This document shows positions 1,732 through 49,568 of a stretch of 64,000 bases of DNA, piece by piece. Position numbers and translations under genes: made by a program. The notes below the pieces were generated by a model. It was given only the letters and a program-made list of their open reading frames with translations, searched no databases and had not been told where the DNA came from. The DNA is from Elusimicrobiota bacterium (GTDB lineage: Bacteria > Elusimicrobiota > Elusimicrobia > JACQPE01): contig JBHPMF010000003.1 of the NCBI GenBank assembly GCA_042563375.1, positions 9,244 to 73,243 on the forward strand. The letters are read 5' to 3'. Every line of letters starts with the position of its first letter. The first letter of the stretch is position 1.

Positions 1732-1834
1732 GAGACGCGAATAGTTGCCTGTATTTGCCGATCACTACGCTTTGATAACTTGGTTACTGCAAATGTTAAC
1801 ATAGTATTTACATTGGGCGGAAATAAATAGTTTT

Positions 1835-2458
1835 ATGTCATATTTTTCCACAAAAGCGATCACGCTCGGCTGGGAACCTTTTAATGAAACAGATGCCATG
1901 ATCCGCGTGCTGTCCAAAAATTTCGGTTTACTTGAGCTCAAGGCAAAAAGCATAAGGAAGGGAAGCGCAAGGCTTATGCCCCTTAAGGAGCCCGGCATGT
2001 TATGCGATTTCCTCTTGTACGGAGATCCCAGGGAGAACAGGATATTAAGTCTTTTAACCGGTGAGATAACAGAGGAGTTCGCTTCCATCAGGCAGGATTT
2101 TACGCGACTTAACAACTCGCTTTTGATCCTTTCGTTCGTCAGGGATTTTTCAACACCATTCGACACGCGATCCGAGGAAAAGTTCTCATCGTTACTGGCT
2201 GCGCTGGGCGCAATGCATTATGAAACTTGCCCGGCTAGATACGTATCCTTGTGGCTGAGGGCCAGAATCTTGAACTTGTCAGGATGGAGCCTTGCCAAAG
2301 AGCACGAGGTTTTTGCGCAGATCGAGGATGAGCTTGAGCCCGGGGAGACCTGCAGCATCGCAGATTTAAGCAGGACCGAATTCATATTGAAGAATGAGGC
2401 CGGGCGCATCAGGGCCGGGATAAACAAGGAAGTTTCGATCGGCAAGGCGGCAAGGTGA
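1835..2458 (+). CDS. recO: DNA repair protein RecO
   Basis: The size, the N-terminal OB-like segment (KAITLGWEPFNETDAMIRVLSKNFGLLELKAKSIRK) and the position directly upstream of and overlapping glyQ all fit RecO. Confidence 0.65.
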   Translation: MSYFSTKAITLGWEPFNETDAMIRVLSKNFGLLELKAKSIRKGSARLMPLKEPGMLCDFLLYGDPRENRILSLLTGEITEEFASIRQDFTRLNNSLLILSFVRDFSTPFDTRSEEKFSSLLAALGAMHYETCPARYVSLWLRARILNLSGWSLAKEHEVFAQIEDELEPGETCSIADLSRTEFILKNEAGRIRAGINKEVSIGKAAR

Positions 2459-14458: not shown

Positions 14459-15502
14459 ATGCGCAAATTGATCCTAAAATGTCCCGCCAAGATAAACTTG
14501 TATTTACGGATTGATCCCAAAAAGAGAAGCCGCCTGCACCCCCTGCAGACATTGATGGCCAGAACAAGTCTCGTTGATACGCTGGAAATCAGCGAGGAGA
14601 ATAACAAGGGCAGGACCGCGCAAGACGCCGGCGCTCAAGCGATCTTTGAGACCCCGAGACTTACATTTCACCTGAGATTTTCAAAACACTATCCGCGTGA
14701 GTCAAGACAGGAACTTCTTTGCGGACTTTCGGAAAACCTTGTCATCAAGGCGCATGATCTTGTGGAAAAAACAATCCCTTCGATTAAAAATAGGAAAACC
14801 CGGATAAAGCTTTTTAAAAACATACCGGTGGGAGGGGGTCTGGGAGGAGGATCTTCTAATGCCGCGTGCGCGCTAAGGGGGCTGGCGGTTTTTTATCGTA
14901 TGCCCATCAAAAAGAATGTTCTTTTGCGCATGGCTCAAAATTTGGGGTCTGACGTCCCGTTCTTTTTAAAGGAGGGGGGTCCATTCTGGTGGGCGGATGG
15001 CTATGGCGAAAGGCTCAAGGAGATAAAGGTTCCAGGCAAACTGCCCTGTTTGATCCTTTATCCCGGGTTTGCCTCTTCCACGCAGCGCGCATACTCGCTT
15101 CTGGATAAAAGCTTTGCCTGTGCCGGCAAGAGAAGGGGGGGAGTTTTCTTGACACCTAATTACATTATTCGTAAACTCTCTACTGATGTAGCGTCTTTGC
15201 TCGACAGGACATTGAGCGGTTGTAGCGGGAATCGCACTCTTAATGGGCGCGGTTTGACATATAACTCTTTTGAAGAGGTCGTATTCGCAAGACATCCTGT
15301 TTTAGTAAAGGCGAAGCTTTGGCTTTTGAACAACAAGGCATTGAAAGTGGGGCTTAGCGGAAGCGGCTCATGCCTTTTTGCCATAGGCAAAAGCCTGTTC
15401 GAATGCCATAAGATGGCGAGATCGATAAATGGTACGCAATTATTTAATGGGTTTAACTGCTACGTATGTGAAACTTGCGATAGCATTACATATAAGTCAT
15501 AG
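14459..15502 (+). CDS. ispE: 4-diphosphocytidyl-2-C-methyl-D-erythritol kinase
   Basis: KCPAKINLYL and PVGGGLGGGSSNAA GHMP-kinase motifs. The ATG at 14459 is preferred over the TTG at 14435. The protein is longer than usual IspE. Confidence 0.8.
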   Translation: MRKLILKCPAKINLYLRIDPKKRSRLHPLQTLMARTSLVDTLEISEENNKGRTAQDAGAQAIFETPRLTFHLRFSKHYPRESRQELLCGLSENLVIKAHDLVEKTIPSIKNRKTRIKLFKNIPVGGGLGGGSSNAACALRGLAVFYRMPIKKNVLLRMAQNLGSDVPFFLKEGGPFWWADGYGERLKEIKVPGKLPCLILYPGFASSTQRAYSLLDKSFACAGKRRGGVFLTPNYIIRKLSTDVASLLDRTLSGCSGNRTLNGRGLTYNSFEEVVFARHPVLVKAKLWLLNNKALKVGLSGSGSCLFAIGKSLFECHKMARSINGTQLFNGFNCYVCETCDSITYKS

Positions 15503-15519
15503 GAATTAAGGGGGAAAAC

Positions 15520-15882
15520 ATGGAACCAACAGAGATACGCATCCATCTAAGAAATGAGAAGAAGCTCAAGGCTTTTGTCACTGTTACTCTGGACAATGCC
15601 TTTGTCATTCATAATATGAAGGTCATAGAAGGGCAGAAAGGTCTGATCCTTTGTATGCCCAGTCGCAAGGGGCCTGACGGACAGTTTCGCGATGTAGCAC
15701 ATCCAATTTCCAATGAATTCAGGAGTTTGCTCGAAAAGAAAGTCTTTGAAGCGTATGAAAAAGAGGTGAAAAACCTCTCAGACAGCGTAGGGCAAATTCA
15801 AGAAAAGGCAAAAGAGCCTGCTGCTGAGGCGACGCAAAAAGCTTCAGAGCCTGCTGCCGAGGTGACACAAAAGTCCTCTTGA
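15520..15882 (+). CDS. spoVG: SpoVG family protein
   Basis: KAFVTVTLDNAFVIHNMKVIEGQKGL...MPSRKGPDGQFRDVAHPI. GGGGGA RBS. C-terminal tandem repeat EPAAE(A/V)TQK. Confidence 0.9.
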   Translation: MEPTEIRIHLRNEKKLKAFVTVTLDNAFVIHNMKVIEGQKGLILCMPSRKGPDGQFRDVAHPISNEFRSLLEKKVFEAYEKEVKNLSDSVGQIQEKAKEPAAEATQKASEPAAEVTQKSS

Positions 15883-15926
15883 GTTACGGGTGTCAAATAA
15901 TATAAAGGGAGGAAATCACCGCTAGA

Positions 15927-17297
15927 ATGAAATCATTAACAGTTGTTATTTTAGCCGCTGGTGAAGGAACCCGCATGGCTTCTCGTATCCCCAAGGTACT
16001 GCATCCGCTTGGTGGAGAGCCAATGCTTTTCTACGTGATTCGCGCTGCCATTGCATTGCGACCGAAAAAAATCGTGATAGTTTTGGGGCGTGATGAGGAT
16101 CGGATCCAGGCCAAGGTAATGGAAGAGTTCTCATCAGCAAAGATGATAACGTTTGCCAGGCAGTCAAAGCCTCTTGGTACAGCTCACGCTGTGGCAAGCA
16201 TAAAAGGTCAGTTCAAAGATACAGGCACCCTTCTTGTGCTCTATGGCGATGTTCCGCTTGTATCAAAAGACTCATTGGAGGATTTGCTTAGCTTCCATAA
16301 GCGCGAAAGAAACAGGGCCACAGTTCTGACTGCCAGGCTCGCCAATCCATATGGATATGGGCGTGTGGTCAGGGGCCCTACCAATGCCCTTCTTAAGATC
16401 GTTGAAGAGATCGACGCATCATTGCGAGAGCTGTCTATCCATGAGATCAATTCGGGTATTTACGCGTTTGAATGGGATACGCTTTCCGCAGTGCTCCCGA
16501 ACATCACGATGAACAACGCAAAGAAGGAGTATTACTTGACCGACACCCTTGAGATTTTACGCAATCAGGGATTAAGAGTCGGAGGATGGCTTACGTCAAA
16601 CGGCGAGGAAGTTCTGGGTATCAACAGCCGTGTTGATCTTGCGCGCGCTGAAAGCGTACTGCAGAGGCTGACGCTGGAGGGCCTCATGAGCGAAGGCGTC
16701 ACGATATTCTTGCCGCACAGCGTGTTCATTGAACCCAGGGTCTCGATCGGTGAAGACAGCGTGATCTATCCGGGAACTATCATTAAAGGCAGGACAGTCG
16801 TCGGAAAGGGCTGCGTGTTGGGGCCGAACCTTTACATCGAGAGATCGACAGTCGGCAATAACGTTCGCGCGCATTATTCCTATATCAGGGAAGCCACAGT
16901 GGCTGATTCCGTCAATATCGGGCCTTTTTCGCATTTAAGGCCGGGCACACATGTGGATTCAAAGGCAAGAGTGGGTAATTTTACGGAGATCAAATCTTCA
17001 CACATAGGTGAAGAAGCAAAGGTGCCGCATCTGTCCTATATCGGCGACAGTGAGATAGGAGTAAGAGCCAATATAGGCGCTGGTACGATTACCTGTAATT
17101 ATGACGGTGTTCGCAAAAACAAGACTGTTATTGACAATGACACATCCATTGGTTCCAATGTCAATCTGATCGCGCCTGTTAAGATCGGCAGAAATTCACT
17201 CATTGCCGCGGGCTCGACGATCACGCGCGATGTGCCGTCTAATACGCTTGCAGTCGCAAGAAGCTATCAGGTAAATAAGCGCAGAAACCTCAACTAA
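15927..17297 (+). CDS. glmU: Bifunctional UDP-N-acetylglucosamine pyrophosphorylase / glucosamine-1-phosphate N-acetyltransferase
   Basis: VILAAGEGTRM...PKVLHPLGG N-domain and a C-terminal hexapeptide-repeat (left-handed beta-helix) region. Confidence 0.95.
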   Translation: MKSLTVVILAAGEGTRMASRIPKVLHPLGGEPMLFYVIRAAIALRPKKIVIVLGRDEDRIQAKVMEEFSSAKMITFARQSKPLGTAHAVASIKGQFKDTGTLLVLYGDVPLVSKDSLEDLLSFHKRERNRATVLTARLANPYGYGRVVRGPTNALLKIVEEIDASLRELSIHEINSGIYAFEWDTLSAVLPNITMNNAKKEYYLTDTLEILRNQGLRVGGWLTSNGEEVLGINSRVDLARAESVLQRLTLEGLMSEGVTIFLPHSVFIEPRVSIGEDSVIYPGTIIKGRTVVGKGCVLGPNLYIERSTVGNNVRAHYSYIREATVADSVNIGPFSHLRPGTHVDSKARVGNFTEIKSSHIGEEAKVPHLSYIGDSEIGVRANIGAGTITCNYDGVRKNKTVIDNDTSIGSNVNLIAPVKIGRNSLIAAGSTITRDVPSNTLAVARSYQVNKRRNLN

Positions 17298-17447
17298 TCC
17301 CACAACGCTGTAGTGTTACAGCGTTAGTGCGTTATTGAGTTATAGCATTAGCGGTTGTGTGTTTACAGCATGATAAGACTATAGCTCTGTAACGCTATAG
17401 TCTTCTATGAGACTATTTGTTCGTATCCATAAGGTGAAAATTTATAT

Positions 17448-18422
17448 ATGAAGCTCAAAAATAAGAGACGCAGGGAAAACAACCTGGCTTTTTTTAGCGG
17501 TAATTCCAATAGGCGTTTGGCGTTGGAGATAGGCAGGTATCTAAAAATACCTCTTGGAAACGCTGATGTGACCCGTTTCGCGGATGGAGAGGTCCATGTG
17601 ATGATAAAAGAGAATGTCCGCGGAAAAGATTGTTTTGTTCTTCAGGGCATAGCGCCGCCTGTGAATGAAAACCTGATGGAGCTTCTTGTTATGCTTGACG
17701 CGTTAAGGCGCGCGTCAGCCGGTAAGATAACAGCGGTTATTCCGTATTTCGGGTATGCGCGCGCAGACCGAAAAGCTCAGCCCCGCACTCCTATCACGGC
17801 AAAGCTGGTCGCTAACATTCTGGCCAGTTCCGGGGCAAGCCGTGTCATAACAGTGGATCTTCATGCCGGGCAGATACAGGGATTTTTTGACATACCGCTG
17901 GATCACCTTTTTGTGACCAAGGTATTATTGAGCCACTTGATCAAGAGGCACATAAAAGATGTCGTGGTCGTGAGTCCGGATGTAGGGGGAGTGGAACGGG
18001 CCAGGTATTTCGCCAAAGTGCTCAAATGCCAGCTTGCTTTTGTTGATAAAAGAAGGCCAAGGGCCAATGAAGCGAATGTTTATAATGTTGTGGGGCAGGT
18101 GAAGGGGAAGCAAGCGGTTATCGTGGATGACATAATCGATACCGGCGGGACACTGACAAAGGTGGCCAAGGCTTTGATGAAGCGCGGAGCGAGTTCTTGC
18201 TCAGCTCTCATATCGCACGGACTTTTAACAAGGAACGCCTTGAACAATATCGAGCAGTCAGCGCTTAGCGAGCTGGTTCTAACTAATTCCATTGATTTAT
18301 CAGAGAAAATATCTAAATCCAAAAAAATCAGAACTGTGTCAATTGCGGGACTTCTTGGCGAGGCGATCAGGAGGAATCACTGCGGTGAGTCCATCAGTGA
18401 GCTTTATAAAGATCTTTATTAA
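17448..18422 (+). CDS. prs: Ribose-phosphate pyrophosphokinase
   Basis: DLHAGQIQGFFDIPLDHL and VDDIIDTGGTL PRPP-binding motifs. Confidence 0.95.
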   Translation: MKLKNKRRRENNLAFFSGNSNRRLALEIGRYLKIPLGNADVTRFADGEVHVMIKENVRGKDCFVLQGIAPPVNENLMELLVMLDALRRASAGKITAVIPYFGYARADRKAQPRTPITAKLVANILASSGASRVITVDLHAGQIQGFFDIPLDHLFVTKVLLSHLIKRHIKDVVVVSPDVGGVERARYFAKVLKCQLAFVDKRRPRANEANVYNVVGQVKGKQAVIVDDIIDTGGTLTKVAKALMKRGASSCSALISHGLLTRNALNNIEQSALSELVLTNSIDLSEKISKSKKIRTVSIAGLLGEAIRRNHCGESISELYKDLY

Positions 18423-18435
18423 TAATTGTAGATAT

Positions 18436-18514
18436 ACACGAATCAACGCGAATAGGGATACGCGAATTGATGCGAATAAAAAGTAATTTAAATTAATTCG
18501 CGTTCATTCGCGTG
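18436..18514. repeat. CGCGAAT-word hairpin immediately upstream of the rplY RBS
   Basis: ACACGAATCAACGCGAAT... pairs with ATTCGCGTTCATTCGCGTGT. The 3' arm recurs as an identical 23-mer (AATTCGCGTTCATTCGCGTGTCT, 18494-18516 and 20148-20170). Confidence 0.7.
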
Positions 18515-18534
18515 TCTTATCAGGGAGGAACATC

Positions 18535-19266
18535 ATGGCTGAAGAATTGGAAATTTTAGCGGAGCTCAGGGGTTCAAATATTAGCAAAGGCGATCTTACT
18601 ATCGCAAGAAAGAATTTAAAGATTCCGGGTGTGATATACGGGGGAAAAGAGAAATCTGTTCCCGTATGGATCAGCTGGAAGGAGCTCGATAAGATCCTGC
18701 GCAAATCAGTAAGTACCAACTTGCTTTTTCGCGTGAGCTTTAAGGACGAAGACAAGGCAGCGATTGGCAAGGGAAAAGCTCCGCGCGTGCTTATAAAAGA
18801 GATCCAGTATGATCCGGTGCGCGGGCAGGCGGTTCATATCGACCTGCTCAGGGTCGCGTTGACGCAAAGGGTTGAAGTATCTGTTAAGATCAAGCTTTTC
18901 GGCGAAGCCAAAGGCGTTAAGGTACAAAGCGGAATCCTTGAACATCTCATCAGGGAATTGAAATTGCGCTGTCTGGCTACAGCCATTCCTTCTGAGGTCA
19001 GGGTCGACATCACGGAGCTGGAAATCGGCAAGTCAATGTTCGTGAAAGACCTGCAGATACCCGAAGGCGTCGAGTTGTTGACAGACCGCAATTCTGTTGT
19101 CGTCCATGTCGTGGCTCCTGCAAAGGAAGAGGAAGTAAAGCCCGATGAAGCAGTCGCCACAGAGCCTGAAGTGATGTCTAAGGGCAAGAAAGAGGAGGTT
19201 CCTGCTGAAGGTAAGGAGGCTGCCGCGTCGCCTGAGAAGAAACAGCCGCCTGAGAAGAAGCAGTAA
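18535..19266 (+). CDS. rplY: 50S ribosomal protein L25 / general stress protein Ctc
   Basis: IPGVIYGG motif, a two-domain Ctc-type length, and an acidic/lysine-rich C-terminal tail. Confidence 0.9.
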   Translation: MAEELEILAELRGSNISKGDLTIARKNLKIPGVIYGGKEKSVPVWISWKELDKILRKSVSTNLLFRVSFKDEDKAAIGKGKAPRVLIKEIQYDPVRGQAVHIDLLRVALTQRVEVSVKIKLFGEAKGVKVQSGILEHLIRELKLRCLATAIPSEVRVDITELEIGKSMFVKDLQIPEGVELLTDRNSVVVHVVAPAKEEEVKPDEAVATEPEVMSKGKKEEVPAEGKEAAASPEKKQPPEKKQ

Positions 19267-19293
19267 CTCAGTTCTCTTTATGGGATCTCCGGC

Positions 19294-19917
19294 ATGATCC
19301 CGGCAAAAGCGCCGGGAGGGGGCCAGGCAGGGAAAAAGCTGCCGGATATTTTTGTCGTAGGCCTTGGCAATCCTGAGCCGAAATATTTTCCCACCAGGCA
19401 CAATCTGGGTTTTAGATTTATTGATAAGCTTATTGATAAATCCGAAAGCGTCAAAGAATCCTATTTTTCCAGTAAGCAAGTCCAGGTCTGGCAGCTTGTC
19501 TGCGGCGATACGCAGATAATGGCAGTTAAACCCATGACTTATATGAACAACTCAGGAGAAGCGATAGGCCGGCTTAAGGGGAAATTCGGCAGCGCAGCGA
19601 TCGATCGCTTGCTCGTAGCTTATGATGATGTGAGCATCGAACTTGGAATGATCCGATTAAGAACAAGCGGATCATCCGGCGGACATCGCGGGATGGATTC
19701 AGTGATAGCGCACGCTAAAACTAAGGATTTCGCAAGACTTCGCTTAGGTATCGGGCCCAAACCTGTGAACATGGATAGTGCGGATTTTGTACTCTCTACT
19801 TTTAAAAAATCAGAGGAGAATGCAGCGGAAGACATGCTTGAAAAGGCTATGAGCGTATTCAGTCTTGTCCTAAGCAATGGCATTGAATACGCGATATCAA
19901 GGATGGGAACAGTATGA
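19294..19917 (+). CDS. pth: Peptidyl-tRNA hydrolase
   Basis: VGLGNPEPKYFPTRHNLGF and GGHRGM motifs. Confidence 0.9.
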   Translation: MIPAKAPGGGQAGKKLPDIFVVGLGNPEPKYFPTRHNLGFRFIDKLIDKSESVKESYFSSKQVQVWQLVCGDTQIMAVKPMTYMNNSGEAIGRLKGKFGSAAIDRLLVAYDDVSIELGMIRLRTSGSSGGHRGMDSVIAHAKTKDFARLRLGIGPKPVNMDSADFVLSTFKKSEENAAEDMLEKAMSVFSLVLSNGIEYAISRMGTV

Positions 19918-19921
19918 AATC

Positions 19922-20196
19922 CACGCGAATGAACGCGAATAAGAGAACGCAAATTTACGCGAATAAGAATGGCTGTTCGGGATCATCTGTCATGCTGAAC
20001 TTGTTTCAGCATCTCTCTTTTTTGTCATTCCAAGGCAAAGGATTCCGGATCACGGAAGCTCCCGGGTTAGACCTGGGATGGCTTTGCCGATTCGCTGATA
20101 TGTTTTTGCTCGCGTGTTCTTATTCGTGCCAATTCGCGCGTCTTCCTAATTCGCGTTCATTCGCGTGTCTTTACAATTCGCGTCCATTCGCGTTTC
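19922..20196. repeat. CGCGAAT-word inverted repeat with an unrelated hairpin element (about 19985-20100) nested in its loop
   Basis: 19922-19940 CACGCGAATGAACGCGAAT is the perfect reverse complement of 20149-20167. Confidence 0.75.
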
Positions 20197-20215
20197 TTTA
20201 TAGGGAGGAATTTTT

Positions 20216-20971
20216 ATGTCTATAGGAATAATACTCGGCAGTGGTTTGGGCGGTGCGGTGAATTATTTTTCCTCAGTGAAGAAGGAATGCAGTTTTGAGG
20301 AATTCCTTGGAATAGATCTTGGCGACAGGCGGCCTCCAAAGGGCCATCATCGCAACCTCCTTAAGGTGACCCACAAGGGCAAGACTTTCTGGATATTGCA
20401 GGGCAGGCTGCATTATTACGAGGGGTTTTCCATGGACACTATCACCAGCACTGTGCGTTCGCTTAACAAGCTCGGAGTGGATACGCTTGTTCTGAGTTTC
20501 GCTTGCGGGTCTATTAATCGCAAATTACGCGTAGGGGATTTCATAGCTCTTAAAGATCACATACATCTTCAATCAGGTAATCCATTGCGCGGAACAACGA
20601 ATTTTATCGACTGCACGAATGTGTATGACGAAGCCCTGAGGAAAAACCTGCTCTCAAGTGCGAAAAAAGAAAAGGCAAGGGCATTTCCGGGTGTTTATAT
20701 TTCCCTTGATGGTCCCACATATGAGACCCCGGCTGAGATAATGGCATATAAAGCCATGGGAGCTGATGTTGTGGGCATGAGCGTCACCTGTGAAGCTCTT
20801 GTGGCAAGATCTCTTGATATGAAGCTGGCGGGTTTCGGATGGGTAAGCAATTTGGCGAGCGGGATAGCTCCCAAGTGTAATTTGTCCCACCAGGAAGTTC
20901 TGGATATGGGGGCGCAAGTCGAGAAATCTTATGGACGTGTGCTTAAGAGGTTCATTGACAGCATAATCTGA
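20216..20971 (+). CDS. Purine nucleoside phosphorylase (PNP/MTAP family, PunA-like)
   Basis: GIILGSGLG start and GADVVGMSVTCEALVA...NLASG motif. AGGGAGGA RBS. Confidence 0.8.
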   Translation: MSIGIILGSGLGGAVNYFSSVKKECSFEEFLGIDLGDRRPPKGHHRNLLKVTHKGKTFWILQGRLHYYEGFSMDTITSTVRSLNKLGVDTLVLSFACGSINRKLRVGDFIALKDHIHLQSGNPLRGTTNFIDCTNVYDEALRKNLLSSAKKEKARAFPGVYISLDGPTYETPAEIMAYKAMGADVVGMSVTCEALVARSLDMKLAGFGWVSNLASGIAPKCNLSHQEVLDMGAQVEKSYGRVLKRFIDSII

Positions 20972-37466: not shown

Positions 37467-39263
37467 ATGACAGATCCTGTATCTGAGAATAAAACAGCGA
37501 ACAATAGAAAGTGGCTTATCGGTCTCTTTGTATTCTTCTGCGCATTCCTGGTTTACTCGAATACTTTTCAGGGTGATTTCATGTATGGGGATGATGAAGA
37601 GATCGTGCTCCGTAACGCGTATTTACAGGACTGGAAACATTGGCCCAAGCTTTTTACTGAGAATTATAAAGCAGGCGCAGGCACGATCTCGAATTATTAC
37701 AGGCCGTTCCAGATGATGATGTACATGTTCATTGTGCAGACAATAGGCGTGACTCCATGGCCGTTTCATTTCACGAATGTGCTGTTTCATGCCTTGTGCG
37801 GCTTATTTATTTACCTGTTGCTTTTTAAGGTGTTTGAACATAAGATATCGCCTGTCATGGCCGGGTTGGCAGCATTGATATGGGTTGTGCATCCGATACA
37901 TGTTGAGGAAGTGGCGATCCCGACAGGAGTCTGTTCGCCTGCGCATCTTTTCTGGATATTAGCGGGGATACTCGCGTTCTTGAAAGCCGTAAGAGTTCCT
38001 TCTGTTTCCCTCTCCCTTGGCGGGAGAGGGCAGGGTGAGGGGGTTCCGCAAAAATGGATGAAATCCCCATTTATTTATTGGTACATGCTTGCAATGGTTT
38101 CATTCATTCTGGCGGTTTTAACAAAAGAAAGCGCTATTGTATTTCCGGCTCTTGTGCTTGCGTGCCATATTGTTGTTGAGATGAATAAGTCAGATGCCGG
38201 ATATGGGTCTGAGAAGCAGGCGCATAAGCATAAGCACAAGAAGAGACCAATATCCGCGGGAAAATCAGAAGAAACCTCTGCTTTGTCCGGGCTGGCTAAA
38301 AAGCTTTTATATCTGCATCTGCCCTTTTGGGTCCTTGCCGGGATTTACGTGATACTGCGCCTTACCGCGCTTAATTTCGCTAATACCCTTGATTTTTATA
38401 CTGTGCCCAATGAATATACGCAGAATATCCTTTACAGGCTCTACACTCTTTGGACGATAATCGGTTTTGGCTTAAAGATCCTTATTGTCCCCATGGGCCT
38501 GCACCCTGAGAGGTCGTGGCCAGTGTATGTGAATTTCTGGCTTACAGATGTGGTTGTTTCGCTGATGATCATAACAGCCCTGATCGCGGGTGGCTTGTTT
38601 GCGTGGAAGAAGAACAGAGCTGTCACGCTGGGAATTTTCTGGTTTTTCGCGAGTTATTCTCCGATGAGCAATCTGGTGGCTAAGATCAATGCGATTTTCT
38701 GGGAGCACTGGTTTTACACGCCTTCTGTGGGGCTGATAATATCAGGGGTGGGGATGATCGTAATATTTGCAAAACAGAAAATCGCTGGCAGGATATTAGC
38801 CGGTATTGCTGTGCTCGCCGTCATTGCTCTTGGGGCATCGAGTTATCTGCGAAATCCAAACTGGCAATCGCCTTTTTCATATTACAGCTTCATATTAAAA
38901 CATGAGCCCAATTCCGGCAAAACCTGGAACAATCTTGCCATTGCATTGGCTAATATGGGCAAACACGCTCAAGCCATAGAATGCTACACGCGCGCTATTA
39001 ACATTGCTGATCAATACCCCCAAACTCATCATAATCTTGCTAACTCCTATCAACACATGGGGCATCGCGATATGGCTGAAAAGGAATTCTTAAAGGCAAT
39101 TAAGATGAAGCCCAGTTTTTATCATTCGCATCTTGCTCTTGCCGAGATATACATTGGGAAGAATGACAGGAAGCTGGCTATCTTCCATCTTGAGAAAGTC
39201 ATGGAGATCTATCCATACATCCCGCGGGTAAAACAAGCCCTTGAAGCCTTGAAAAAGAACTAA
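37467..39263 (+). CDS. GT-C fold membrane glycosyltransferase (TMTC/PMT-like) with C-terminal TPR repeats
   Basis: Multi-TM N-terminal region with a GDDEEIVLRNAYL first-loop acidic motif. C-terminal TPR (WNNLAIALANMGKHAQAIECYTRAI...). Confidence 0.7.
   Translation: MTDPVSENKTANNRKWLIGLFVFFCAFLVYSNTFQGDFMYGDDEEIVLRNAYLQDWKHWPKLFTENYKAGAGTISNYYRPFQMMMYMFIVQTIGVTPWPFHFTNVLFHALCGLFIYLLLFKVFEHKISPVMAGLAALIWVVHPIHVEEVAIPTGVCSPAHLFWILAGILAFLKAVRVPSVSLSLGGRGQGEGVPQKWMKSPFIYWYMLAMVSFILAVLTKESAIVFPALVLACHIVVEMNKSDAGYGSEKQAHKHKHKKRPISAGKSEETSALSGLAKKLLYLHLPFWVLAGIYVILRLTALNFANTLDFYTVPNEYTQNILYRLYTLWTIIGFGLKILIVPMGLHPERSWPVYVNFWLTDVVVSLMIITALIAGGLFAWKKNRAVTLGIFWFFASYSPMSNLVAKINAIFWEHWFYTPSVGLIISGVGMIVIFAKQKIAGRILAGIAVLAVIALGASSYLRNPNWQSPFSYYSFILKHEPNSGKTWNNLAIALANMGKHAQAIECYTRAINIADQYPQTHHNLANSYQHMGHRDMAEKEFLKAIKMKPSFYHSHLALAEIYIGKNDRKLAIFHLEKVMEIYPYIPRVKQALEALKKN
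38006..38047 (+). repeat. A-like hairpin element embedded in frame in the GT-C/TPR gene
   Basis: TTCCCTCTCCCTTGGCGGGAGAGGGCAGGGTGAGGGGGTTCC is translated as (V)SLSLGGRGQGEGVP. Confidence 0.6.
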
Positions 39264-40867: not shown

Positions 40868-41629
40868 TTATGGGAAGAAGAGGATTAAAGTTTTGTTTTC
40901 AATGAGCTGGCTATAGTAGCTTCCTGCTAAGCTTACGGAGATGTTGTATGGGGTGTTAGCCGTGACGTTTATCGGTACAGGCGTTATAATGGTGTATGGC
41001 TGCCATCCGCAGCACAGCGTGGTGTCAATACGTGCGGCTTCCGTAGGGGCCCAAAGCCGAAGAATGCGCCCATAACATCCAGCATTATTTCCACATGGAC
41101 CTGTCATTCGACCTTGTGCCATTATGAGTATTTGACCGCTTGCTGTTGGGGTAAATGTTAATGGACCGGAAACTGGGTCTTGGCAGGCAACTACGTCGGG
41201 CAGATAAATATTAGACATTGTTATTGGCGCGTCAAACGCAGTCCAATTTGTTCCATCGTGGTAATACGGTTTTTTGGTCCCAGAGTCATAATCGATCCTT
41301 CCTTCTTCGGGTGTAGGGGAATTAGGATATAGATCCAGGTTCGGAGTCTCTATTATACCGGTAGCTGTTAAATTACCGTTGACATCGAGCGCATATCCCG
41401 AGCTCGGACTTGTTGTGCCTATGCCGACATTACTGCCGGATTGCGTGGCAAGAAGAGTGTTTCCTGTTGAGTGCAGCTCCTTGTAAACTCCGTAAGGAGA
41501 CGGATAATAAGATGTGATCGTGAGCTTTTCCGCTACCAGGGTCACTCCGTAGATCAGGAATCCGAAAAAACCGATGATGATCAAGTCTTTTCGTTCGATC
41601 GATTTTTTGTGCCAAGGTTTTGGATCCAT
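40868..41629 (-). CDS. N-terminally anchored fibre-like surface protein with the TSYYPSPYG motif
   Basis: TM (LIIIGFFGFLIYGVTLV), then AEKLTITSYYPSPYGVYKEL, then NVGIGTTSP...LDVNG and EGRIDYDSGTKKPYYHDGTNWTAF fibre-like motifs. The start at M17 (41629) is preferred over 41677. Confidence 0.5.
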   Translation of the reverse strand: MDPKPWHKKSIERKDLIIIGFFGFLIYGVTLVAEKLTITSYYPSPYGVYKELHSTGNTLLATQSGSNVGIGTTSPSSGYALDVNGNLTATGIIETPNLDLYPNSPTPEEGRIDYDSGTKKPYYHDGTNWTAFDAPITMSNIYLPDVVACQDPVSGPLTFTPTASGQILIMAQGRMTGPCGNNAGCYGRILRLWAPTEAARIDTTLCCGWQPYTIITPVPINVTANTPYNISVSLAGSYYSQLIENKTLILFFP

Positions 41630-47620: not shown

Positions 47621-47700
47621 CATGGGTTTTAGGGGCAGCCCTGCTTTTTGTTTGCGAAAATCAGGGAGAGGTCCTGTTGGTTTTTATGTAGGATAAACAC

Positions 47701-48003
47701 ATGAATCGGCCGATATATGTGAAAGACCTGGCAGCCTTCCTGGGTGTTATTATGATTTTTTTCGCGGTTTACTCGGTCGCCGAGAAGCTTACTTTAACAA
47801 GTTATTACCCTTCTCCGTACGGAGCTTATAAAGAAGTCAAAGTAACAGAAAGCATAACGATCAAAGCAAGTTATAATTGCACTAACTTCAATAAATCACC
47901 AGTTGGAAACGCGAGATTCTGTTTTGATCCCGCAGACAGTAAGTTGAAAATCTCGGAAAATAATCTAGATTATCATCCTATCCACGCTTTTTACGCTCCA
48001 TGA
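47701..48003 (+). CDS. Small N-terminally anchored protein with the TSYYPSPYG motif
   Basis: TM (LAAFLGVIMIFFAVYSV), then AEKLTLTSYYPSPYGAYKEV. ATGA overlap with the BNR protein gene. Confidence 0.5.
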   Translation: MNRPIYVKDLAAFLGVIMIFFAVYSVAEKLTLTSYYPSPYGAYKEVKVTESITIKASYNCTNFNKSPVGNARFCFDPADSKLKISENNLDYHPIHAFYAP

Positions 48004-49427
48004 GGACCAGGGCCACAATCCTTCTCGCGGTGTTTTTTGCGTTTGTATTGCCTGTTTTATCTGAATCATGGGTGGCAACAAGTGTTATGCTGCCTGGCAC
48101 AGGCGGCAAAGCAGGTGAGGAAACAGCAATAGTGAGCGCTCTGCTCGTGGTGCCCGGGGCAGGGGTTTTCGCGGGACTATTTAATTCTGACAAGCTTTTT
48201 AAGACAAGCGACGGCGGAGAATCATGGACGAATGCCGGGCAATTGGGATCAGGCGTACGGGTGAATTCTCTTTTTTTAACAAAGGATAAAAGGATCCTGG
48301 CTGCTGTGGCTACAACACAAGAGGGTTATGCTATAGCTGAGTCAGGAGACAAGGGCGCGTCATGGCATAAATTGGGCGTTCTCTCTACCGCACAGGAAGC
48401 TTTCGTGGTCATAGAAACTGAAGATAAAAAGATTTACGCTGGATTCGTAAGTGGAACGCATGGGCAGGTGTATAGATATACTGACACTGATTGGGAAGAT
48501 ACCGGACTTAACAGCGCGGGAGGAGGTGTGCATTCCCTGATTCAGAGCACAGACGGAGTGATTTATGCCGGTACTGCTCAAGGCAGTCTGTATAAGCTTG
48601 AGTCTCCCTGGACACCGGGCGGTTGGAACAAAATAAATTTAGCGGGTGTACAGCACGTGGAGACATTGTTTGAGGCGTCTGGCGGGTGGATTTTTATGGG
48701 CGGGTGCACATCCGGAGCTGACGCGAAAATATACAGAAGCAATGATGGTTTTGCGAGTTGGAGCGAGTATAGTATAGCTATGCCAACCGGGGGAAATCCT
48801 CATGGCGTGTATAAAATCATGCAGGCAGGCAATGGGGCGCTTTATACAACAACAAGTCCATCGGGCGGAGACAAGGCAAGAATTGTGTTTAAATCATCCG
48901 ATGGCGGAGTTACTTGGGTAGATGCGGGGGAGGTTTCAGATGATGCTGAGATCGGATATGATATTGCACAAGGGGAAGATGGCGCTATATACGTGGGAAC
49001 AAAGAAAGGCGTTCATAAAACCGGAACCTGTTCCGGTCCTCAGGAAGCCGGTTTTTTTACTTGGACAGATGATCTCACTGCTGATGCAACCAAGATCAGG
49101 GTGATTCATATTGAGGAATTAAGGACTCATATTAATTTTTTGCGCGCGGATGCGGGACTTGTGGAGTGTTCAACGGCTGCTGCCACGTCTCCTGAATGTT
49201 GGGCAGTGGGCAGCATGATTAGCACCAATACCACGCCTGTAAGGACTTCACATATTACAAAGCTTCGCACAGCATTAAGCGCTGTGTATGTTCAATGCGC
49301 CCAGCCTCTGCCCGATCTTCCGGGAACAACATCGCCCTGGGCAGAGCCGATAATCAGCGCTAATTCGACAGTGATAAAAGCCCAGCATTTCCAGGAGGTC
49401 AGAGACTATGTTGACAATGCTCCCTAG
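48000..49427 (+). CDS. Secreted BNR/Asp-box beta-propeller protein with a C-terminal triple-repeat domain
   Basis: Signal peptide. Asp-boxes TSDGGESW, SGDKGASW, SNDGFASW and SSDGGVTW. The C-terminus has 3x (I/V)(R/K)..H(I/F)..(L/V)R. Confidence 0.65.
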   Translation: MRTRATILLAVFFAFVLPVLSESWVATSVMLPGTGGKAGEETAIVSALLVVPGAGVFAGLFNSDKLFKTSDGGESWTNAGQLGSGVRVNSLFLTKDKRILAAVATTQEGYAIAESGDKGASWHKLGVLSTAQEAFVVIETEDKKIYAGFVSGTHGQVYRYTDTDWEDTGLNSAGGGVHSLIQSTDGVIYAGTAQGSLYKLESPWTPGGWNKINLAGVQHVETLFEASGGWIFMGGCTSGADAKIYRSNDGFASWSEYSIAMPTGGNPHGVYKIMQAGNGALYTTTSPSGGDKARIVFKSSDGGVTWVDAGEVSDDAEIGYDIAQGEDGAIYVGTKKGVHKTGTCSGPQEAGFFTWTDDLTADATKIRVIHIEELRTHINFLRADAGLVECSTAAATSPECWAVGSMISTNTTPVRTSHITKLRTALSAVYVQCAQPLPDLPGTTSPWAEPIISANSTVIKAQHFQEVRDYVDNAP

Positions 49428-49568
49428 TTTTTATTGCTGTCCAAGGTTTTAGGGGTTGCCGCCTCTTGCATTTCCAAGAGTTTTGCGATGCTGTTGATGC
49501 AACACACTAGTACGCTTCTTTATAAGTTGGTAAGATAATAAATTAGCCGGTAATAACAGGGATTTATC

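Follow-up and report, generated by a model that had tools for sequence, protein, structure and literature searches.

The TTYYP box, an N-terminal segment placed after a predicted Sec signal peptide in a large protein family of Omnitrophota and Elusimicrobiota

Two genes of an Elusimicrobiota genome share an N-terminal segment

The window analysed here is a stretch of 64,000 nucleotides (nt) from an Elusimicrobiota bacterium (assembly GCA_042563375.1, contig JBHPMF010000003.1, positions 9,244 to 73,243). It carries two genes, encoding a protein of 100 amino acids (aa) and a fibre-like protein of 253 aa, in which the same short segment, hereafter the TTYYP box, directly follows an N-terminal hydrophobic segment. 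A sequence-only reading of the window had reported this common peptide in two otherwise unrelated proteins, had taken the hydrophobic segment for a transmembrane (TM) anchor without any Sec cleavage site, and had proposed that the peptide is a distinct N-terminal signal of surface-fibre proteins. The two genes and their N-terminal parts are located as follows (a slash marks the predicted cleavage site).

47701..48003, plus strand: open reading frame (ORF) of 100 aa, minimal member of the TTYYP-box family, with signal peptide, box and a 54-residue tail without detectable relatives
47701..47781, plus strand: predicted cleavable Sec signal peptide of the 100-aa ORF (residues 1-27, MNRPIYVKD-LAAFLGVIMIFFAVYSV-A, putative site S-V-A/E)
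47782..47838, plus strand: TTYYP box of the 100-aa ORF (residues 28-46, EKLTLTSYYPSPYGAYKEV)
40868..41629, minus strand: fibre-like protein of 253 aa, with signal peptide, TTYYP box, one GSNVGIGTTSPSSGYALDVNGN fibre unit and a C-terminal head
41531..41629, minus strand: predicted signal peptide of the fibre-like protein (residues 1-33, putative site T-L-V-A/E, called from sequence and family statistics)
41474..41530, minus strand: TTYYP box of the fibre-like protein (residues 34-52, EKLTITSYYPSPYGVYKEL)

The 100-aa protein begins MNRPIYVKDLAAFLGVIMIFFAVYSVA/EKLTLTSYYPSPYGAYKEV, the corresponding region of the fibre-like protein reads LIYGVTLVA/EKLTITSYYPSPYGVYKEL, and the peptide common to both is AEKLT[LI]TSYYPSPYG[AV]YKE[VL]. 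A six-frame scan of the window for [ST]YYPSPYG finds exactly two sites, 47800-47823 (plus strand) and 41489-41512 (minus strand), and a degenerate DNA pattern for T[TS]YYPxPxGxY recovers the same two only, with 0.00 expected from 100 shuffles. Over the 22 aligned codons of the two boxes, 18 residues are identical, 12 of these 18 use differing codons, and nucleotide identity is 46/66. Since synonymous codons diverge between the two copies, the box is conserved at the protein level and is not a recent DNA repeat, in agreement with the earlier reading, and this divergence shows that selection acts on the protein. The two proteins display no relatedness beyond the shared segment (BLASTP E = 0.6), which agrees with their description as otherwise unrelated and gives no support to a second resemblance that had been proposed, between G.ARFCFDP..SKLKI of the small protein and G.I.Y[DN]....K..Y..G..W of the fibre-like protein. 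MAFFT aligns the former with the GNVGIGTTSP..KLDVNGN fibre unit instead and, this match being weak too, the motif was rejected as evidence.

When used as query of a homologue search, the 100-aa protein matched only itself. Its AlphaFold model (27-row alignment) is confident only for a helix at residues 7-25, the remainder staying below a predicted local distance difference test (pLDDT) score of about 60, and therefore offers no fold to search with. This protein is a minimal member of the box family, little more than the putative handle, and complete short box proteins of 66-130 aa also exist at other loci. Both window genes lie in housekeeping surroundings that include a PfkB kinase, methylmalonyl-CoA mutase, trmD, rpsP and a FIST protein.

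Distribution of the TTYYP box

The two window proteins are members of a very large family of exported proteins, which lacks annotation and is defined by its N-terminus only. The shared peptide is the core of a 24-residue box, A/E-x-h-T-h-TTYYP[SA]PxGxYxEL. The fibre-like protein, used as search query, matched 57 proteins; in the resulting set of 58 (the two window proteins and 56 other matches), [TS][YF]YP[SA]P occurs at residues 21-45, right after the hydrophobic segment, in 53 proteins. The five proteins devoid of the box (P0026, P0033, P0050, P0053 and P0055) were matched through their GNVGIGTTSP..KLDVNG repeats only. A DNA-pattern scan of 185,579 species, each represented by a single genome, gave at least 119 loci, to which all counts of listed loci given below refer. 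In all 137 occurrences found at these loci, the box is near the ORF start and follows a signal-peptide-like segment. Furthermore, a profile of 42 positions of these N-termini (A2), searched exhaustively against 1.84 billion cluster representatives (50% identity), matched at least 5,357 of them at E <= 1e-3 and 951 at E <= 1e-10. Among the best 150 of the 5,357 matches, the box is always within the first ~80 residues and nearly always within ~55. These results provide the conservation in relatives on which the significance of the motif had been made to depend.

The sampled profile matches are unnamed or called 'hypothetical protein', the single named organism being an Omnitrophota. According to the record titles of the 80 titled loci among the matches listed, the box is found in Omnitrophota/Omnitrophica (46 loci), Elusimicrobia(ota) (15 loci), metagenome-assembled genomes (MAGs) of 'uncultured Planctomycetales/Planctomycetia' (11 loci) and unclassified 'bacterium' (8 loci), and no other phylum is named. 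The box pattern is absent from the 2.9 million viral contigs of IMG/VR, and a phage origin of the box was rejected on this basis. Many loci carry two or three tandem box paralogues, and some box genes are in conserved synteny with pheT or with arginine/lysine biosynthesis genes, which fits a core role in the envelope.

Anatomy of the N-terminus

The N-terminal organization was deduced from a set of 310 different N-termini, in which the first T of TTYY was taken as position 0. The residues found are the following; those of the core were partly fixed by the regular expression used, the flanking ones being free.

Position -8: A 44%
Position -6: A 50%, the remainder mostly Q, E, S and T
Position -5: E 88%
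Positions -3 and -1: I, L or V
Position -2: T 90%
Positions 0 and +1: T 98% and T 95%
Positions +2 and +3: Y 100% and Y 100%
Position +4: P 100%
Position +5: S 77%, A 21%
Position +6: P 100%
Position +7: Y 55%, R 26%
Position +8: G 100%
Position +9: V 59%, S 20%
Position +10: Y 99%
Position +12: E 59%
Position +13: L 86%
Position +14: R 56%

The consensus after the predicted site is therefore E-x-[ILV]-T-[ILV]-T-T-Y-Y-P-[SA]-P-x-G-x-Y-x-E-L-[R]. Its pattern, h-T-h-T-T-Y-Y / P-x-P-x-G / x-Y-x-E-L-R, reads as strand-turn-strand.

The part that precedes the box has the features of substrates of Sec and signal peptidase I, i.e. a basic n-region (median net charge +2), a hydrophobic h-region within the usual range of ~10-20 residues (median of 17 residues for the longest uncharged stretch) and small residues at -3 and -1. 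By a crude -3/-1 rule, a small residue at -3 with A, G or S at -1 was found 5-10 residues before TTYY in 305 of the 310 N-termini, the site being exactly A/E in 175 of them. Most Omnitrophota members display textbook signal peptides, such as LYSLSFS/DEKITITTYYP. The hydrophobic segment is thus most simply read as a Sec signal peptide that signal peptidase I would cleave at an AxA-type site; once exported and matured, the protein would then start with the box as its free N-terminus. Of the earlier proposal, the shared N-terminal signature stands, but the TM anchor and the absence of a Sec cleavage site are not supported. The motif [ST]-R-R-x-F-L-K of the twin-arginine translocation (Tat) pathway is missing from both window proteins, and RR is found only in some Elusimicrobia box members (GRRE, TRRK).

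An Elusimicrobia subfamily (P0015, P0018 and P0023; L015 and L092) carries 10-15 additional conserved residues ahead of the basic part of its signal peptide. This extension, x-h-T-h-x-h-x-h-x-R-R-[EK], at times contains a twin arginine. It suggests a different export route, or an additional recognition element, that may operate in that lineage.

Sequences that follow the box

Box proteins are 47-641 aa long (median 244), and their C-terminal parts are highly diverse. They include fibre units of the GNVGIGTTSP..KLDVNG type, the Peptidase_S74 intramolecular chaperone, the phage tail collar domain, dockerin-like DxNGDG stretches, Cys-rich heads ending in CC[KR] and featureless short tails. One Cys head, C...C-P-x-G...[FMLV]-x-C-C-[KRAQ] near the C-terminus, recurs in both phyla and lies outside Pfam (for example in P0005, P0011, P0025 and P0035, and at L003, L015, L083 and L121). 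This head is probably a disulfide-bonded terminal domain.

Searches for a previously described signal

Neither Pfam-A (local copy), NCBIfam 20.0 nor PHROGs gave any match over the box, in searches with all three window proteins. The precomputed Pfam column, which includes newer accessions, is empty for most box proteins; PF26696 appears on only three of them, on the basis of a common C-terminal feature and not of the box. PDB sequences searched with the box profile and with the fibre-like protein gave chance-level matches and no chain with the box, and a literature search for the motif strings found no relevant mention. The features of type IV prepilins (class III signals) were not found, since neither N_methyl (PF07963) nor TIGR02532 matched and the motif sits after the hydrophobic segment, the opposite of the prepilin order. 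A lipobox ([LVI][ASTVI][GAS]-Cys) is likewise missing: Glu follows the predicted site in 88% of the N-termini, and the window proteins have no Cys there. The assertion that the motif matches neither prepilins, lipoboxes nor a defined sorting-signal model was thus borne out in Pfam, NCBIfam and PHROGs. Globally, these data lend partial support to the proposal of a distinct N-terminal signal for surface-fibre proteins, which is read here as an undescribed, lineage-specific signal that comes behind a Sec signal peptide.

The propeller gene downstream of the small box gene

The TGA of the 100-aa ORF overlaps, in ATGA, the ATG of a second ORF, which encodes a putative secreted protein.

48000..49427, plus strand: secreted Asp-box (BNR) 7-bladed beta-propeller of 475 aa, with a C-terminal domain of unknown fold
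49026..49424, plus strand: C-terminal domain of the propeller protein (residues 343-475), with three I/V-[RK]-x-x-H-[IF]-x-[EK]-[LV]-R repeats

The identification of this product as a BNR propeller with a signal peptide, already made from its sequence, is upheld by several lines of evidence. Its N-terminus is a signal-peptide-like segment, and it carries four SxDxGxxW Asp-boxes (TSDGGESW, SGDKGASW, SNDGFASW and SSDGGVTW). In its AlphaFold model, residues 45-341 are all-beta, with block-mean pLDDT mostly of 65-85, and the model matches GH74, Ycf48 and PLL (Photorhabdus) lectins, all 7-bladed (Foldseek E ~1e-10). The protein thus has the repeated S-x-D-x-G-x-x-W on a 6-8 bladed propeller that defines BNR/Asp-box propellers. 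It misses the gathering score of Pfam BNR_2 in the local Pfam copy (27.7 vs 31.4 bits), and its precomputed annotation lists PF13088. Its relatives are all distant (Ycf48/BNR), with at most 30% identity over partial length. The database gene call is 459 aa long and starts at 48048, 16 codons after the ATG at 48000. With this downstream start, the protein would lose both its signal peptide and the ATGA overlap; the ATG at 48000 is preferred because it gives a complete signal peptide.

The 100-aa protein and the secreted propeller are probably translated together, and the propeller may act as a partner of the small protein. The two genes had been described as a coupled module: the ATGA overlap with an ATG start agrees with coupling, but the small protein has no homologue outside the box and no counterpart of the pair was found. 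A conserved small-protein/propeller module was rejected, since the relatives of the propeller are only distant and no propeller gene adjoins a box gene at the 119 listed loci. The downstream neighbours of box genes elsewhere are heterogeneous, often encoding secreted and frequently Cys-rich proteins. The pair is therefore plausible as an operon, yet it is a singleton confined to this genome.

The C-terminal domain of the propeller protein (~130 residues) was not modelled by AlphaFold (pLDDT < 40). Over residues 347-473, it resembles (E 3e-10) the N-terminus of a secreted, Cys-rich protein that exceeds 750 aa and is built of CC-containing repeats. In an Omnitrophica MAG (L018; match at ~1831-2166, minus strand), the gene of this protein comes directly after a box gene, on its downstream side. 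By this similarity, the domain may constitute a second, rarer link to box genes.

Two copies of a 16-nt direct repeat, 47625-47640 (GGTTTTAGGGGcaGCC) and 49445-49460 (GGTTTTAGGGGttGCC), lie 1,820 nt apart in the two intergenic regions that bracket the small-ORF/propeller pair. Their first 11 nt are identical, this exact 11-mer has no further occurrence in the window, and the first copy overlaps a terminator-like hairpin. As repeats of like length arise by chance within the same 3.6 kb, this repeat, which may be an insertion scar, a shared terminator or an operator, is not taken as evidence.

Association of box genes with Hxs radical-SAM cassettes

All ORFs of the 119 listed loci were clustered to survey the neighbours of box genes. 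In 15 of these loci (~13%), a gene encoding a ~140-aa HxsD-like protein lies immediately downstream of the box gene on the same strand; at the loci whose ORFs have clear limits, about -4 to +71 nt separate the two. It is followed by a gene encoding a ~485-aa radical S-adenosylmethionine (SAM)/SPASM protein, HxsB, then by further radical-SAM genes. These loci belong to Elusimicrobia (L003, L015, L022, L050, L085, L090, L092, L102 and L106) and to Omnitrophota-type MAGs (L025, L026, L041, L053, L074 and L083), and the box proteins that they encode have only their N-termini in common. The HxsD-like proteins match TIGR03976 below threshold (E 1e-11), a short second copy matches NF038315, the HxsB proteins match TIGR03978 with 358-494 bits (cutoff 370), and HxsC/HxsC4-like proteins give sub-threshold NCBIfam matches. 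In the cassettes of Elusimicrobia, two HxsD/HxsB pairs are present together with two candidate substrates. An independently chosen locus, P0030/L200, shows the order box gene - HxsD (PF27806, Pfam's call) - radical SAM - HxsD, then radical-SAM genes. This Elusimicrobia-type contig carries six consecutive radical-SAM genes after the box-headed cassette (14685-20750), an unusually dense island. A multi-pass membrane protein with tetratricopeptide repeats (TPR), encoded at 37467-39263 of the window, was also considered as a recurrent neighbour; it was discarded, its homologue being near a box gene in one locus only (L011).

In the reverse test, an HxsB alignment scanned against metagenome contigs returned 80 loci. 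A box gene lies ~1 kb upstream of HxsB in 7 of the 43 loci with at least 1.4 kb of upstream sequence, and also in L171 (8 in total), these box-headed loci including the nearest relatives of the query HxsB. The 36 remaining loci of the 43 have other upstream genes, often encoding other secreted proteins, and no box gene. Furthermore, 52 of the loci fetched, mostly Hxs cassettes, box-headed ones included, carry a ~100-aa peptide-coding gene downstream of HxsB. The peptide, HxsA4, has a leader K.FL.SEEGK, a hydrophobic segment and a long (SHG)n, and matches NF038313 with 70-95 bits (cutoff 55); its presence identifies the cassettes as the curated 'type 4' His-Xaa-Ser (HXS) systems, provided with their own canonical substrate. 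Type 4 cassettes made of a long HxsD, a short HxsD-like protein, HxsB and the HxsA4 peptide are abundant in environmental contigs (L120-L199), where their upstream gene mostly encodes another secreted or membrane-anchored protein. The HxsA4 repeats comprise up to ~40 SHG/SHS and end in GQW, GSW, SSY or GGWC (for example L137 6895-7197, L128 13600-14109, L092 5537-5860 and L102 2774-3127).

The linkage between box and Hxs genes is thus real and operonic, the box gene being a lineage-specific extra first gene of type 4 cassettes, but this does not imply that the box is a target of the enzymes. About 87% of the box genes at the listed loci, as well as both window copies, adjoin no Hxs gene, and tblastn detected none in the window. 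H-x-S runs are absent from box proteins, and the window proteins do not match the NCBIfam HxsA models (TIGR03979, NF038313). The HXS system of Escherichia coli is an antiphage system in which HxsB, HxsC and HxsD process the N-terminus of HxsA and modify this protein, which bears a signal peptide and acts in the periplasm once mature (PMC13128918). In a survey of HxsA homologues, 99.7% belong to Pseudomonadota (PMC13128918).

Possible roles of the box

The box itself, its strictly N-terminal position, its lineage restriction, its signal-peptide context, the diverse C-termini and its multi-copy and tandem occurrence are all observed. The explanation tentatively preferred here, which may well be wrong, is that the box is a shared post-export N-terminal handle for the attachment or sorting, or the passage through the outer membrane, of exported fibre- or adhesin-like proteins. 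Sec export followed by cleavage of the signal peptide would leave the box as the free mature N-terminus. It would then fold as a short beta-hairpin (strand hThTTYY, turn PxPxG, strand xYxELR), and one shared envelope component could receive many different fibre or adhesin heads through this hairpin handle. Such a model leads to an analogy with the N-termini of phage tail fibres, the N22 segment of the curli subunit CsgA and the N-terminal extension of chaperone-usher pilins.

Several points weigh against this handle. No receptor, usher, peptidase or other machinery is consistently encoded beside box genes at the listed loci, and their sole recurrent non-housekeeping neighbours are the genes of HxsD-like proteins, then of HxsB and further radical-SAM proteins, a maturation neighbourhood which would rather suit a site of modification or recognition. 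Signal-peptide cleavage is predicted, by our own crude -3/-1 rule and not by SignalP, the AlphaFold monomer of the 100-aa protein gives no confident structure for the box, and the host genome was inspected across the 64-kb window only. Finally, the box might be no more than a cap in the structure of the fibre.

This last view, in which the box is an N-terminal cap or trimerisation nucleus of a beta-helical fibre, kept by folding constraints and devoid of any sorting role, is unlikely. Peptidase_S74 is an intramolecular chaperone typical of trimeric fibres. Many box proteins run straight into GNVGIGTTSP..KLDVNG units, some end in Peptidase_S74, and the box itself has a strand-turn-strand pattern, all of which would suit a cap; however, the box is also found on proteins without fibre units (L025, L041, L074, the members of 66-130 aa and the 100-aa ORF of the window), fibre-repeat proteins without the box exist (P0026, P0033, P0050, P0053 and P0055), and the fixed spacing between box and signal-peptide site suggests that a free N-terminus matters. 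It is very unlikely that the hydrophobic segment stays uncleaved as a signal anchor, the box being a juxtamembrane periplasmic element of proteins tethered to the inner membrane. In the lineage of the window, the h-region does reach 17-19 residues, comes after a conserved [KR]P[IL]..K[DE] motif and has no helix breaker before the site, and AlphaFold models residues 7-25 of the 100-aa protein as a confident helix. Nevertheless, canonical small residues at -3 and -1 precede the invariant Glu in 305 of 310 N-termini, most Omnitrophota members have textbook signal peptides, and, in a diderm cell, fibre or adhesin heads held at the inner membrane would presumably fail to reach the surface.

The radical-SAM neighbourhoods raise another alternative, distinctly unlikely in its turn, namely that the box is a recognition or modification site for Hxs-type radical-SAM maturation, all the box paralogues of a genome being clients of one cassette. 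The HxsD-like protein would then bind the N-terminal region in the cytoplasm, and HxsB would modify or process it before export. The order box gene - HxsD-like - HxsB in 15 of the 119 listed loci, from both Elusimicrobia and Omnitrophota-type MAGs, the independent arrangement of P0030/L200, the 8 metagenomic HxsB loci with an upstream box gene, the identification of the HxsD-like and HxsB proteins by TIGR03976 and TIGR03978, the two HxsD/HxsB pairs with two candidate substrates of Elusimicrobial cassettes and the published processing of a signal-peptide-bearing periplasmic protein by HxsB, HxsC and HxsD (PMC13128918) all speak for such a client role. Conversely, the cassettes have their own canonical HxsA4 substrate downstream of HxsB, 36 of the 43 related cassettes have no box gene upstream, ~87% of the listed box genes lie away from Hxs genes, which the window lacks altogether, and box proteins are devoid of H-x-S repeats.

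A further and rather doubtful reading is that the TTYYPxPxGxY box constitutes a new sorting or maturation signal specific to Omnitrophota and Elusimicrobiota. It would be either an address tag for an envelope machine that displays fibre adhesins on ultra-small, possibly host-dependent cells, or a docking and cross-linking site for HxsD/HxsB.

Comparison with known systems

The N22 segment of CsgA and the N-terminal extension of chaperone-usher pilins are targeting or assembly segments located at the mature N-terminus of exported fibre subunits. Like them, the box is a short conserved segment directly after a (here predicted) signal peptidase I site, has the alternating hydrophobic/polar pattern of a beta-strand and is shared by subunits with differing bodies. 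However, it has no sequence similarity with these segments, and no CsgG/CsgE, usher or chaperone gene was found near box genes at the listed loci. These loci thus display neither the dedicated chaperone and usher genes nor the common incomplete Ig-like fold that characterize chaperone-usher systems, and the C-termini of box proteins are far too diverse for donor-strand exchange into a common fold. The box family also recalls type IV prepilins (class III, GFTLIE) by its lineage-wide hydrophobic helix and motif, its many paralogues and its variable C-termini, but both the box and the predicted cleavage site are located after the helix, and G(-1), F(+1) and E(+5) are absent.

The fibres of phage tails and the tail of the adenovirus fibre have a conserved N-terminal attachment peptide and a variable C-terminal receptor-binding head. 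Box proteins resemble them in having a conserved short N-terminal peptide, variable heads and relatives with Peptidase_S74 and collar domains, but differ from phage fibres in being chromosomally encoded with secretion signals and in having no IMG/VR match and no meaningful PHROGs match. At the cassette-linked loci, as in HXS systems, i.e. the type 4 variant (HxsA4, HxsD-like, HxsB and HxsC4) and the antiphage system of E. coli (PMC13128918), a signal-peptide protein is encoded in an operon with HxsD and HxsB. Unlike HxsA, box proteins carry neither H-x-S repeats nor a peptidoglycan-binding domain, and most of their genes are unlinked to Hxs genes.

Significance for Omnitrophota and Elusimicrobiota

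Omnitrophota and Elusimicrobiota are abundant and almost entirely uncultured phyla. To our knowledge, next to nothing has been learnt about the biology of their cell surface. One tag of 24 residues marks at least 5,000 protein clusters, all 'hypothetical', and therefore gives a simple listing of their repertoire of exported fibres and adhesins; a profile model of the box would at once improve the annotation of the genomes of both phyla. The family also raises the question of what reads the box tag. Should the box serve as a signal for sorting or attachment, a new route of export or display would be defined. If it is a tag of Hxs clients, radical-SAM chemistry would reach from one antiphage effector of Proteobacteria to a large family of surface proteins and, if HxsD/HxsB use it as a cross-linking site, chemistry of the type known for ribosomally synthesized and post-translationally modified peptides (RiPPs) would act on a whole class of full-length Sec-exported proteins.

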